From: Eledone cirrhosa
Taxonomy: Eukaryota
Assembly: GCA_964016885.1 (NCBI GenBank)
Contig: OZ024743.1
Span: 28,892,001 to 28,956,000 of the forward strand
Length of the DNA: 64,000 nt
Reading direction: 5' to 3'
Shown here one piece after another: positions 4,292-14,644 of the stretch. The notes beneath the pieces were generated by a model. It did no database searches. It was not told where the DNA came from and worked only from the letters and a program-made list of their open reading frames with translations. Made by a program: the position numbers and the translations under genes. Each line of letters opens with the position of its first letter. Position 1 is the stretch's first letter.

Positions 4292-5279
4292 TGTATATAT
4301 ATAGATGTATCTTCAATATATATATACATATATATATATTCAATATATATATATACATATATATATATATATATATATATATATATATATATATATATAT
4401 ATATATATATATATATATATATATATATATATATATATATATATATATATGTATATATATATTGAAGATACATCTATATATATATATATATACACACACA
4501 CACATATACATATATACGTATTGAATATATATATATATATATATATATATATATATATATATATATATATATATATATATTATATACAAGTATAAATATA
4601 TATATGAGGGATTCCGACAAATACCAATTTGGCTCGATGAAAGAATTAATAAAAATCAATTATTCAGAGCTGAATACAAATTAATTAGAGACGTAAATAA
4701 GTTTTAAAAATATTTACCTATTTACTCAGTATTCCCAGCATATATATATATGTGTGTGTGTGTGTGTGTGTGTATGTGTGTGTGTGTGTGTGTGTGTGTG
4801 TGTGTGTGTGTGTGTGTGTGTGTGTGTGCATATATAACGAATGCGGTAAAGGATGGCGGGGAAAAAATTGTTCACAGATAATATATAGACGAATACATAC
4901 ATACATACACACACATACATACATACATACATGCATACATGCATACGTACATACGTACGTAGATACATGCATACATGCATACGTACGTGCATACCTGCAT
5001 ACACACATGCATAAAATATACACATACATACATACATACTTACACACATACATACTTACACACATACACACATACACACATACACACATGCATACATACT
5101 TACTTACACACACACACACACATACATACATGCATACATACGTACATAGATATATATACACATACATATATGCATACATACATACTTACTTAGACACATA
5201 CATACATACATACATACATACATACATACATACATACATACATACATACATACATACATACTTACACATATACATACAT
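4292..5279. repeat. Compound microsatellites (TA)n, (TG)n, (CATA)n
   Basis: Read directly from the sequence. These explain the YI, CV and HTYI ORFs. Confidence 0.95.
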
Positions 5280-5887
5280 GGTGGCTGCCAACTCGTTTTC
5301 GAGTACGGCCACTACTTCATATCCATGTAGGAGAACTCATACCGATGCACTGAACGAGTGTGACTTTTTAGTCCAGCCAGCGACTTGAAAACTCTGGTAC
5401 AAACACTACACCTGTGACAATTATTGATACATAGTGCTGGGCCCATGGTACCATGTGACGACAAGTGCAGAGAGATCTCCAGATATAAAGCAATGCCTGT
5501 GCCGTGAAGCTTTTATAGTGAGCAAAGACACTGCACAAAGCCAGTCCCACTCTCTTAACCAAGATGATATTTACCAAAAACAAGAACAAGTCAACATCAT
5601 TGGATACCATCAGGGTTGCAGGTGTTATATCAGAGTTTTCCTTCTCCTAGAATTCTGCCTTGACAAAGGCTAAGGGGTCATCTCTCCCGGTGATTTTGGA
5701 TGGCTATTGACTCTTAAGAACTCCTTTGCCCTGTGACAGGTTTTGTTTTTAGTCCTGCAGGATGTCCAAAGTCACGCTCCTCGCCAAGAAACCTTAGTGG
5801 GGCTGCCAGTTTAGTCGCCAACGACCCGACCATGAGACAAGCTGTACTGGGATACATGTTACCAGTAGCACCAACTGGTGACCTGAC
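5280..5887 (-). mobile_element. Non-coding retro-like element A, full-length copy, in (CATA)n
   Basis: ~610 bp with near-identical copies at 5967, 10752 and 14023, all sharing the same CAT|GGTGGCTGCC end. Confidence 0.85.
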
Positions 5888-5966
5888 CATACATACATAC
5901 ATACATACATACATACATACATACATACATACATACATACATACATACATACATACATACATACAT

Positions 5967-6370
5967 GGTGGCTGCCAACTCGTTTTCGAGTACGGCCACT
6001 ACTTTATATCCATGTAGGAGAACTCCTACAGATGCGCTGAACGAGTGTGACTTTTTTGTCCAGCCAGCGACTTGAAAACCCTGGTACAAACACTACACTT
6101 GTGACAATTATTGACACATAGTGCTGGGCCAATAGTACCATGTGAGGACAAGTGCAGAGAGATCTCCAGATATAAAGCAATGCCTGTGCCGTGAAGCTTT
6201 TATAGTGAGCAAAGGCACTGCACAAAGCCAGTCCCACTCTCTTAACCAAGATGATATTTACCAAAAAGAACATGTCAACATCATTGGATACCATCAGAGT
6301 TGCAGGTGTTATATCAGAGTTTTCCTTCTCCTAGAATTCTGCCTTGACAAAGGCTAAGGGGTCATCTCTC
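5967..6370 (-). mobile_element. Element A, 5'-truncated
   Basis: Same conserved end, stops at GGGGTCATCTCTC, flanked by (CATA)n. Confidence 0.85.
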
Positions 6371-6405
6371 ATATACATACATACATACATACATACATAC
6401 ATACA

Positions 6406-6508
6406 CAAATTTGACGGAGAGGTGCGAATTTACAGATATTCATTAAAAATTCACAGATATTCATTACAAACTTTTTATCAGGGTGTCTGGATAGTTTCCT
6501 TATCCAAA
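6406..6508. mobile_element. Short element B (~103 bp) in (CATA)n
   Basis: CAAATTTGACGGAGAGGTGCGAA...GGATAGTTTCCTTATCCAAA, with copies at 10646-10748 and, partially, 11988-12031. Confidence 0.75.
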
Positions 6509-6598
6509 CATACATACACACATACATACATACATACATACATACATACATACATACATACATACATACATACATACATACATACATACATACATACA

Positions 6599-11668: not shown

Positions 11669-11682
11669 CATATATATATACA

Positions 11683-11977
11683 GAGGAGATTGCAAATCCA
11701 GTATCCAAGATAAACCTTCAGCTTCATACCCATCATTATTGGAGCTACGGGTTATATACCAACCCGTTTGGACCAAAGTATGACTGAACTTGGATTTGCG
11801 GACAAACCGCGCAGCTCCCTAATTCATAGTCTACAAATGGCTGTGATAGCTGGCACCTTCAACATTTGCAAAACATTCTTGCGATTCAAGGGATGACAAT
11901 TTCTTTTCTTTTACAACCTTGCCACCAGGAAGGTGGCCGGTCAAAAAAATATACTCGAAATTAAGAGAAAGAGATAA
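11683..11977 (+). mobile_element. 3' end of a sister R4-type RLE LINE (family C)
   Basis: Translates RRLQIQYPR*TFSFIPIIIGATGYIP...LQMAVIAGTFNICKTFLRFKG*, homologous to RNLQILHPDYTFRFMPAIIG...GTVKICKTF of the large LINE. It ends at AA|CATAC. Confidence 0.8.
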
Positions 11978-12104
11978 CATACACGCACAAATTTGACGGA
12001 GAGGTACGAATTTACAGATATTCATTAAAAAATATATCATTAGCTCTTTAGTTGTAACGTTGATACCAGCGTTGGTGTTTATTAGCGAATGTGTTATTGA
12101 TTCT

Positions 12105-13475
12105 GATGGTGGTGGTGGTGGTGGTGGTGGTGGTGGTGGTGGTGGTGGTGACGTTGATGGTATTGATAATTGTTTGGGGGTGGCTCTAGGCATTAATGAT
12201 AATGGTAGTGTTAGTGGTGGTGGTTTTGAGGATGTTGTTGATGTGGTGGGGGTGATACTGATGTGATGGAGACAGAGGTGGTGATACGGATGGCTGATGG
12301 TAGTGGAGGTGGTGGTGGTGATGGTGGTGATGATGGTGATGATGATGGTGATGGTGATTGTCGTGGAGGTGATGGTGATGATTGTGATGCTGATAGAGGT
12401 GATGGTGGTGATGCTGATAGTGATAGAGGCGGAGGTGGTGATGCTGATGGTAGTGGTAGTGGTGATGATGGTGATGCTGATGATGGTGGTGGTGGTAGTG
12501 GTGATGGTGGTGGTGGTGGTGGTTTTGGTGGTGGTGGTGGTGGTGGTAGTGGTGGTGGTGATGGTAGTGGTGATGGTAGTGGTGGTGGTGGTGGTGGTAG
12601 TGGTGATGTTGGTGGTGGTAGTGGTAGTGGTGATGGTAGTGGTGATGGTAGTGGTGATGGTAGTGGTGGTGGTGGTGGTGGTGGTGGTAGTGGTGATGAT
12701 GGGGAGGCTCATGATGGTGGTGGTGGTGGTAGTAGTGATGGTGGTGGTGGTGTTGTTGTTGTTGGTGGTGGTGGTGGCGGTGGTGGTGGTGGTGGTGGTG
12801 GTGATGGTAGTGGTGGTGGTGATGGTAGTGGTGATGGTAGTGGTGGTGGTGGTGGTGGTAGTTGTGATGTTGGTGGTGGTAGTGGTAGTGGTGATGGTGG
12901 TGGTGGTAGTGGTGGTCGTGGTGGTGGTGGTGGTAGTGGTGGTGGTGGTGATGGTAGTGGTGATGGTAGTGGTGGTGGTGGTAGTAGTGGTAGTGGTGGT
13001 GGTGATGGTAGTGGTGATGGTAGTGGTGGTGGTGGTGGTGGTGGTAGTTGTGATGTTGGTGGTGGTAGTGGTAGTGGTGATGGTGGTGGTGGTAGTGGTG
13101 GTCGTGGTGGTGGTGGTGGTAGTGGTGGTGGTGGTGATGGTAGTGGTGATGGTAGTGGTGGTGGTGGTAGTAGTGGTAGTGGTGGTGGTGATGGTAGTGG
13201 TGATGGTAGTGGTGGTGGTGGTGGTGGTGGTAGTGGTGATGTTGGTGGTGGTAGTGGTAGTGGTGATGGTGGTGGTGGTAGTGGTGGTAGTGGTGGTGGT
13301 GGTGGTGGTAGTGGTGGTGGTGGTGGTGGAAGTGGTGGTAGTGATGATGGTGGTGGTGGTGGTGATGAAGGTGATGCTGGTGATGGTAGTGGTGGTGGTG
13401 GTGGTGGTGGTGGTGGAAGTGGTGGTAGTGATGATGGTGGTGGTGGTGGTAGTGGTGGTGATGGTGGTGGTGGTG
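12105..13475. repeat. Degenerate (GGT/GAT/AGT)n trinucleotide array with a 186-bp higher-order repeat
   Basis: Variant markers recur at 186-nt spacing: G(T/G)TGTGATGTT-type motif at 12861, 13047 and 13233, and GGTCGT at 12917 and 13103. Confidence 0.9.
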
Positions 13476-14022
13476 TCGGTTCTAAAGTTGATACATATAC
13501 GGGAAGTAATGGCATCGGTATCGATATTACTGGCTATATAGAGTTGCAGACGGTGACTGGTTTTCAAATGAAAAGTAATTTCCGGAGTAGTGTACAGAGA
13601 AGCGTGGCATTTGATAACACACACACACACACACACACACAGACACACACATACAGAGAGAGAGAGAGACCCCCCACCCCCACACACACACACATACATA
13701 CAGAGAGAGAGACACAGATACATACATGAATACATATTACATACATACACATACATACATGCATACATACACACACGCGCACATACACACATACATATAC
13801 ACACATATACACACACATATACACACATACATACATACACACACATACATACACACAGATGCACACACACACATATGCATATATACATACATACATACAT
13901 ATTCACACGTACATACATACACACATACATACTTACGCACACACACACATACATACATGCACACATATACATACACACACACATACATACATACACGCAT
14001 ACACGTACATACATACATACAT

Positions 14023-14587
14023 GGTGGCTGCCAACTCGTTTTCGAGTACGGCCACTACTTTATATCCATGTAGGAGAACTCCTACTGATGCGCTAAACAA
14101 GTGTGACTTTTTAGTCCAGCCAGCGACTTGAAAACTCTGGTACAAACACTACACTTGTGACAATTATTGACACATAGTGCTGGGCCCATGGTACCATGTG
14201 ACGACAAGTGCAGAGAGATCTCCAGATATAAAGCAATGCCTGTGCTGTGAAGCTTTTATAGTAAGCAAAAGCACTGCACAAAGCCAGTCCCACTCTCTTA
14301 ACCAAGATGATATTTACCAAAAAGAAGAACAAGTCAACATCATTGGATACCATCAGGGTTGCAGGTGTTATATCAGAGTTTTCCTTCTCCTAGAATTCTG
14401 CCTTGACAAAGGCTAAGGGGTCATCTCTCCCGGTGATTTTGGATGGCCATTGACTCTTAAGAACTCCTTTGCCCTTTGACAGGTTTTGTTTATAGTCCTG
14501 CAGGATGTCCAAAGTCACCCTCCTCACCAAGAAACCTTGGTGGGGTTGCCAGTTTAGTCGCCAACGTCCCGACCATGAAACAGGTTG
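14023..14587 (-). mobile_element. Element A, slightly 5'-truncated
   Basis: Same conserved end, flanked by (CATA)n. Confidence 0.85.
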
Positions 14588-14644
14588 TACATACATACAT
14601 ACATACATACATACATACATATATACATACATGATTGTGTATGT

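Follow-up and report, generated by a model that had tools for sequence, protein, structure and literature searches.

R4/Dong-like LINE families in (CATA)n microsatellites of Eledone cirrhosa: a likely change of target repeat

Insertions in the window

The window, that is, the whole stretch of DNA analysed here, comprises 64,000 nt of Eledone cirrhosa (assembly GCA_964016885.1, contig OZ024743.1, positions 28,892,001-28,956,000, forward strand). On its left edge the cluster begins with a degenerate (CATA)n tract (4893..5278, plus strand; TRF and sequence). The near-complete RT-CCHC-RLE LINE described by an earlier note, which was made from the sequence of this window, is confirmed: L occupies 6597..10623 on the plus strand, carries RT (PF00078), CCHC and RPD..E..K motifs, and ends in ..GAAGAA|CATA. 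The further LINE 3′ ends are also real, and both are 5′-truncated on the plus strand: a 222-bp piece of L (11447..11668) and a 295-bp piece of C, a second R4/Dong-like LINE, ending in ..AGATAA|CATA (11683..11977). The terminus ..AA|CATA claimed for both LINE families is thus present in the sequence. All four A copies are found as well, on the minus strand and opposite to L and C: a full-length element of 609 bp with the 3′ end ..GCAGCCACCA|TGTATG (5279..5887), a 5′-truncated copy (5966..6370), a second full-length copy (10751..11359) and a copy without 40 bp at the 5′ end (14022..14590). They are 3-4% divergent and differ in their 5′ ends; the single fixed end common to all of them is, A being minus-strand, the 3′ end.

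The sequence B, which had been counted as a fourth element family, does not hold as one. Copy 1 (6405..6512), copy 2 (10645..10751, 97% identical to copy 1) and copy 3 (11987..12031, first 45 bp only, running on into the unique right flank) all lie on the plus strand, and in genome searches the first 45 bp match only these three places, which rules out a dispersed retroelement family; seven weak matches to an older repeat elsewhere involve only the last ~40 bp. B is a local duplication that probably arose from target DNA through staggered cutting of the second strand when C and L inserted, copy 1 likely being one half of the long duplication that surrounds L; a search for further unique duplications of this kind next to L or C gave no convincing case. 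R9Av, an RLE element, reportedly makes an unusually long target duplication (a 126-bp TSD). B, at one locus only, suggests a similarly long one, but R9Av has an rDNA target and a fixed TSD length. The inventory of ten insertions of four families is therefore reduced to seven insertions of three families: the L, C and A parts stand, and the three B copies are removed.

In 390 kb of random DNA (39 stretches of 10 kb), the 3′ ends of 1 L, 0 C and 4 A were found, versus seven insertions in the ~10 kb of the window cluster, and the cluster exceeds chance expectation. That it is merely a tandem duplication or an assembly artefact is extremely improbable. Such an origin agrees with the local duplication of B, to which alone it may apply, but the A copies differ as described, the window copies L and L′ are 10% divergent, and L, C and A all have dispersed copies with identical junctions on many chromosomes, so the segmental duplication or artefact envisaged as a refutation did not come true.

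To the right of the cluster, the copies at 18.4-19.2 kb do abut TGTATG, but they represent two further families of RTE derivation, with 69-72% similarity to A: A3 (18439..18941), a bipartite element derived from the autonomous RTE of L310, and the 5′-truncated A2 (18963..19190), another A-related family. Both lie on the plus strand and end in ..CAGCCATCA|TGTATG. The copy at 23 kb is indeed a dispersed C 3′ end (23032..23319, plus strand), but upstream of it stands (GATA)n, and downstream no more than TACACATACAT.

L310 encodes APE (PF03372), RT and a C-terminal C2H2-like finger, and from the single-ORF APE-RT layout and its motifs we take it to be an RTE. A3 is 90% identical to it over the 5′ 450 bp and 90-92% over the 3′ 50-64 bp; the 5′ part of A is 71% identical, and both encode KSLAGLKSH (the A frame being hand-translated). 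To judge from these alignments, A, A2 and A3 are bipartite non-autonomous RTE derivatives, in which the 5′ and 3′ parts of an APE-RT LINE are retained and the middle is missing. A's own exact autonomous partner was not found in the APE search of the genome, which gave CR1 and Tx1-like elements, used below as controls. Bipartite non-autonomous RTEs are known, namely Bov-A, RTESINE and WALLSI3, and are built, like A, A2 and A3, of the 5′ region of an RTE fused to an RTE 3′ end (PMC5786205); unlike them, A, A2, A3 and the autonomous RTE lie inside TA/TGTA tracts, on both sides. The RTE/APE derivation, the opposite strand and the looser target (TA/TGTA) speak against A as a client of the RLE lineage, a reading rejected here.

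Proteins and relatives of L and C

The window L copy is dead: its ORF (about 6775-10360) is broken by in-frame stops and frameshifts, it has a 93-bp deletion at 10336 compared with other L copies, and 5 nt are missing from its 5′ end. Outside the window, C reaches a full length of ~4,027 bp, with a ~1,170-aa open frame intact in 9 of the 19 copies fetched; the family includes young open-frame copies. The protein P0123 (1,169 aa) is a single ORF with RT (PF00078, E=1e-24, FFVDD), and the C and window L proteins both carry the knuckle CRLC-X8-H-X4-C (CX2CX8HX4C) followed by RPD-X14-E. The closest sequence/profile and fold matches are R2 structures and extend through the C-terminus. The 5′ breakpoints of the truncated copies vary (41 distinct among 45 L, 43 among 44 C), and the 3′ end is fixed. 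L and C thus show, at the level of sequence, the features of RLE (R2-group) non-LTR elements: a single ORF with RT, a CCHC knuckle with a predicted PD-(D/E)xK-type endonuclease, and a fixed 3′ end. Contigs from four sequencing runs covered family C but skipped the repeats and are therefore uninformative about the flanks.

An N-terminal zinc finger (CCHH-like motif in the first 350 aa) occurs in 0 of 62 aligned proteins, as in the R4/Dong clade. The N-terminus has three helices (residues 22-74) in which Trp residues are conserved, and TAA-type relatives can be aligned with this part; neither Pfam nor fold comparison of a single-sequence model gave a Myb match for this region. Silkmoth Dong carries an HDV-like ribozyme (PMC3774820); in L and C no Rfam ribozyme match was obtained, and none was detected by a home-made descriptor lacking a positive control.

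In the RT, L and C are 56% identical and the tree puts them on different branches, which does not support the label "sister" of L that C had been given. In that tree (midpoint root, long outgroups, rows without named R4, Dong, HERO or NeSL sequences), both fall in a long-branch 25-row clade (SH-aLRT 99), next to which stands a clade of TAA-flanked elements with 64 rows. A first metagenome scan with one protein as query gave no match; the two metagenome members of the L/C clade with a terminal repeat both abut (CTTA)n. In a cluster look-up of the proteins, Argonauta hians was the only named source.

Dong, of the R4 clade, is a (TAA)n-specific element with a single ORF, RT and REL/RLE endonuclease and no N-terminal zinc finger, inserted in the microsatellite with the repeat on both sides (PMC7998251). 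L and C share this architecture and the two-sided microsatellite but differ in target, (CATA)n instead of (TAA)n; a separate family of the same genome, 33% identical to L and C, has the TAA target. It has been reported that Dong-R4 elements are abundant and recently active in Octopus vulgaris, with 5 families and 1,129 insertions (PMC13282606, Table 1). The ACAY-microsatellite-specific Waldo elements (WaldoAg1/2, WaldoFs1) have a target that includes ACAT, which is the same repeat as CATA (PMC3812793); however, they are APE-type elements of the R1 clade in insects, so that a different endonuclease has arrived at the same target by convergence. Microsatellite targets are also known among RLE elements, in Togen (NeSL-related, (TG)n) and in some HERO families (PMC4640811), which going by their published descriptions belong to other clades with other repeat units. 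In the literature, Repbase being outside the search, no paper was found giving a tetranucleotide target for R4/Dong.

Flanking repeats of L and C

The 3′ flanks were taken from central matches of element-only queries, that is, independently found copies (n=29 L, n=29 C). CATA repeats follow 25/29 L and 23/29 C, the reverse (TATG) orientation follows none, and the first four bases are exactly CATA in 22/29 of each family. The background is 0.94%, the share of positions on each strand that CATA-like 16-mers occupy in the 39 random stretches, so the expected genome-wide enrichment is present. Among all collected copies, a set that includes adjacent copies within CATA clusters as well as a few segmental duplicates, CATA follows 70/75 L and 55/68 C. 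On the 5′ side, where unrelated flanks were to refute the idea, CATA lies within 20 nt of all full-length copies (L 16/16, C 18/18) and of 63 of the 89 truncated ones (L 29/45, C 34/44), against a background of 1.6%, and reverse-polarity CATA is found at 1/123 5′ ends. Because CATA also precedes 34/34 full-length and 63/89 truncated 5′ ends, it is a target and not just a tail.

The opposite view is very unlikely, namely that slippage made CATA merely as a tail, that the 5′ tracts come from the tails of earlier elements or of hosts, and that clusters built up passively. Upstream tracts do often follow the end of another element, but the same-polarity 5′ flanks largely refute it. Moreover, the genuine tail-only families here, CR1 and Tx1-like LINEs, end in short (ATT)n, are followed by CATA in 0/14 cases and have unrelated flanks, while the canonical Dong-like family shows the same two-sided pattern with another repeat unit: 28/30 3′ ends and 15/19 truncated 5′ ends lie in TAA, and none at either end in CATA. 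Of the truncated copies without 5′ CATA (16/45 L, 10/44 C, most with CATA still on the 3′ side), some are internal deletions or rearrangements, and the others are compatible with an RNA-templated CATA tail.

Such a tail leads to a second alternative, RNA-DNA pairing, in which read-through CAUA-repeat transcript ends anneal to nicked TATG strands, the endonuclease is weakly specific and short CATA tails can be written at poor sites. It agrees with the higher frequency of 3′ than of truncated 5′ CATA (L 70/75 versus 29/45) and with the leader of C, which is carried by the element (its TATA variant tracks an internal SNP, 12/17 versus 0/8, P=0.0016), and a 3′ microsatellite/cut-site link has been proposed for RTE (PMC6007223). 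However, the 3′ junction phase is fixed and mostly long CATA tracts lie 5′ of truncated copies, which still requires a nick within CATA. In addition, (TA)n is avoided, with TA at only 1/58 central L/C ends, although pairing with it would be possible at 3 of 4 bases and its 16-mers are six times as frequent in random DNA as those of CATA (5.65% versus 0.94%). On balance RNA pairing is improbable, if less so than a slippage-made tail.

The junctions were examined in other ways. Microhomology at the 5′ junctions averages 2.4 and 2.1 nt versus 0.4 in the null, which was computed without gapped BLAST extension. No clean empty site was found via repeated flanks or across all loci; L121/L122, met in this search, are members of six duplicated copies on C28. 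TSD scoring gave a weak signal with no fixed length (10/218 copies versus 2 shuffled).

Proposed mechanism and meaning

L and C are thus probably two R4/Dong-like RLE LINE families inserted in (CATA)n with fixed phase and orientation, whose protein would recognise the repeat and nick the TATG strand, and the CATA-specific lineage proposed in the earlier note is supported by the flanks on both sides and by dispersed families. Since L and C sit in CATA at a fixed base and orientation while a third relative sits in TAA, a switch of the machinery that cuts their target to another repeat is likely, and the specificity may reside in the endonuclease itself. The nick would prime reverse transcription (TPRT); from the junctions and established TPRT, the first one is placed at 5′-TATG^TATG-3′, with 1 nt of uncertainty because the last A is shared. 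Microhomology of ~2 nt may help the 5′ joining, and in full-length C the element-borne repeat-like leader may assist as well. CATA would remain on either side of each insertion, so that sites stay usable and nested chains like the window cluster build up. A, A2 and A3 were likely mobilised by an APE-type RTE acting on the other strand (5′-TACA^TACA or TA^TA) and accepting (TA)n too. Propagation of the repeat by insertions, as had been suggested, is not shown: of 21 pure CATA tracts taken at random, only 5 have one of these families within 60 bp, and CATA accounts for 0.28% of random DNA compared with 5.1% for TA.

A broader joint reading, to which we give about an even chance, is that an unnamed, widespread R4/Dong sub-lineage switched from TAA to C(A/T)TA while its N-terminal DNA-binding arm changed to match (NR(D/N)Y-x5-W for (R/K)xKW). 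Young open-frame CATA and TAA paralogues would coexist, the RTE would use the opposite strand, so that LINEs partition microsatellites by unit and strand, and long staggered cuts would lengthen the tracts at each insertion.

Microsatellite-specific LINEs are already known, and what is new here is the target and the lineage, not the mechanism. The case bears on how RLE retrotransposons change their targets; proteins of R2 type are under development as tools for site-specific gene insertion. With young open-frame TAA and CATA elements in one genome and CTTA-flanked relatives one base away, the specificity determinant is testable by domain swaps. Octopod CATA microsatellite markers should be used with caution, as they may carry multi-kb insertion alleles. 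For Eledone cirrhosa itself, such targeting would account for the repeat-dense clusters of the genome.

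Flanking repeats of families L and C

The earlier note placed the 3′ ends of two R4/Dong-like LINE families, L and C, in CATA repeats, and the genome-wide flanks bear this out. With the element sequence alone as the query (no flanking repeat), 30 loci per family were taken from the best 40 candidates, and the 29 best-matching copies outside the window were followed by CATA in 25 cases for L (CA 1, other 3) and 23 for C (TA 1, other 5). The background is 0.94% CATA-like 16-mers per strand (TA-like 5.65%) in 39 evenly chosen 10-kb stretches of the genome, and pure tracts cover 0.28% (CATA), 0.82% (CA) and 5.1% (TA) of random DNA. 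Among all de-duplicated copies, neighbours included, CATA lies 3′ of L in 70/75 and of C in 55/68. Within 20 nt upstream, it was found at every full-length copy (L 16/16, C 18/18) and at 29/45 truncated L and 34/44 truncated C copies (background 253/15,522), while the reverse unit occurs at 1/123 5′ ends. The 5′ ends without upstream CATA include internal deletions and inversions, and about 8–10 L copies, judged by eye, have CATA 3′ yet a plain unrelated 5′ flank.

A third RLE family of the same genome, retrieved with the protein of a TAA-flanked metagenome relative and with numerous open frames 1,141 aa long (33% identical to the C protein), is a young canonical TAA-targeting Dong-like family (L035:2711-3118 and loci L443-L472). 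Its 3′ ends lie in (TAA)n in 28/30 copies and its truncated 5′ ends in 15/19, none of either in CATA. Open-frame CR1 (957 aa) and Tx1-like (1,204 aa) LINEs with (ATT)n tails were also observed (L290-L309); their readable 3′ ends (eleven CR1 and three Tx1-like, six more fetched copies being unreadable there) show short (ATT)n and then non-CATA DNA. These controls indicate that the CATA association is lineage-specific rather than a general sink, and a real target preference of L and C is strongly supported.

The cluster in the window

The L copy at 6597-10623 is, as proposed, a near-complete RT-CCHC-RLE LINE: RT is present, with CCHC and RPD..E motifs, its ORF is disrupted by stops and frameshifts, and 93 bp are missing at 10336. 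Self-BLAST of the window, positions 28,892,001-28,956,000 of G000:C4, also gave one further L 3′ end, one C 3′ end, four copies of A and three of B. The ten insertions first counted come down to seven on re-examination; of the four families, L and C stand, while A and B are reinterpreted. B is no dispersed family, since searches of the 3.0 Gb genome gave no match to its first 45 bp outside the window. The elements are ordered (CATA)n-B-(CATA)n-L-(CATA)5-B ... C-CATACACGC-B(45 bp)-unique flank, an arrangement which would be expected of the remains of long target duplications, made at the C insertion and then at the L insertion; alternatively, the B copies may come from local tandem duplication. 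An older repeat family (L203-L209) has the last 40 bp of B in common and often ends near CATA/TA tracts.

Elsewhere in the window, a long GGT-rich tract lies at 12100-13480, with a 495-codon Gly-rich open frame at 12242-13729. A 60-bp tandem array (2234-2390) has an apparent inverted counterpart (3345-3501), and the two are possibly arms of a foldback element. Two common SINE-like repeats occupy 14630-14980 and 28815-29209; elsewhere, the latter type frequently interrupts copies of L and comes after TAA tracts.

Family A and the mode of insertion

The fixed end of A, read on the minus strand, is its 3′ end; at the other end, 44 different 5′ breakpoints were counted. The best 29 matches outside the window are followed by TATG in 17 cases (TA 9, TG 1, other 2), and all de-duplicated copies, neighbours included, by TATG in 82/103, plus TA in 15. 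At L310 lies an APE-RT LINE that carries a C2H2-like finger at its C-terminus. A matches the 5′ part of this LINE at 71%, and the element at window 18.4-18.9 kb matches both ends of the LINE at 90-92%. Among 29 copies of this RTE type, the 25 with a readable 3′ end are flanked by TA (13), TATG (6) or other sequence (6), and 6/7 truncated 5′ ends lie in TA/TATG, two of them probably representing one duplicated insertion. By these counts, the RTE system favours TRTA repeats and uses the other strand than L and C do.

Target-primed reverse transcription (TPRT) is the established priming mechanism by which such junctions are interpreted. Read in this way, priming of L and C would start on the TATG strand, at TATG^TATG, and that of RTE/A on the CATA strand, at TACA^TACA; either position is uncertain by 1 nt. 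Truncated 5′ junctions have 2.1-2.4 nt in common with the tract, versus 0.4 expected (n=28, 35, 33). The leader variant ..TATA.. of full-length C tracks an internal SNP (12/17 vs 0/8), which indicates that several repeat-like bases are carried by the RNA.

Proteins, relatives and target in the R4/Dong lineage

At full length, C measures about 4,027 bp and is bounded by (CATA)n|AAATGGCG and AGAGA(T/A)AA|CATA. It begins with AAAATGGCG (L327:122-140), which resembles a YY1 site, followed by two hairpins; a subfamily (L226, L230, L237, L142) has a longer and rearranged 5′ UTR. Open frames of 1,172-1,174 codons were present in 9/19 fetched C copies, and seven proteins of 1,169 aa are mutually 99.2-99.7% identical. 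None of 20 fetched L copies has an intact ORF (longest frame 661 aa), and a single full-length L insertion is carried in six duplicated segments of assembly sequence C28 (L240-L245, G000:C28). Among named proteins, the nearest homologue of C comes from Argonauta hians (64% over 68% of the query), which points to a probable octopod host. The predicted structure of one 1,169-aa C protein, P0123 (pLDDT 88), best matches R2 structures (E=2e-34), as does the profile search. Its N-terminal three-helix unit carries conserved tryptophans; Pfam and fold searches of this unit made no Myb call, and no N-terminal zinc finger was found in 62 aligned relatives.

Of the 80 metagenome loci kept, 35 reach the C-terminus, and their first downstream repeat is TAA (19), CTTA (2), TTA (2), poly-A (2), CAA (1), TA (1), GAT (1) or none (7). 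In a quick IQ-TREE tree (93 RT rows, rows <300 aa removed, without named references, midpoint root), L and C group with both CTTA loci and the top protein homologues in a clade of 25 rows (SH-aLRT 99, branch 0.54), adjacent to a 64-row clade with the TAA loci (SH-aLRT 97). C had been called a sister of L, but their RT identity is 56% and they are not sisters in this tree. The CTTA relatives, L330 and L332, have 3′ UTRs of about 1 kb, and L330 is bordered by (CTTA)n on either side. Four in-clade loci include the C-terminus, two with CTTA and two stopping before any repeat. A lineage-wide target switch, resting on the two CTTA loci, has thin support.

Full-text literature searches turned up no paper in which R4/Dong elements are said to target CATA or any further tetranucleotide; an entry in Repbase or Dfam may mention it. 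The papers covered, by passages or abstract, include PMC13282606, PMC4640811, PMC9115989, PMC5678591, PMC8967140, PMC10294476, PMC5786205, PMC3774820 and PMC6007223. PMC7998251 gives (TAA)n as what Dong targets in the majority of insects, molluscs and cnidarians, PMC3812793 lists ACAY for Waldo, and the passages covered from cephalopod-repeat papers name Dong or Dong-R4 with no target given.

Judged from sequence, L and C would be microsatellite-specific R4/Dong elements of an already known sort, with a new repeat target. Such insertions might plausibly propagate the CATA repeat; among random CATA tracts, only 5/21 touch the families described here.
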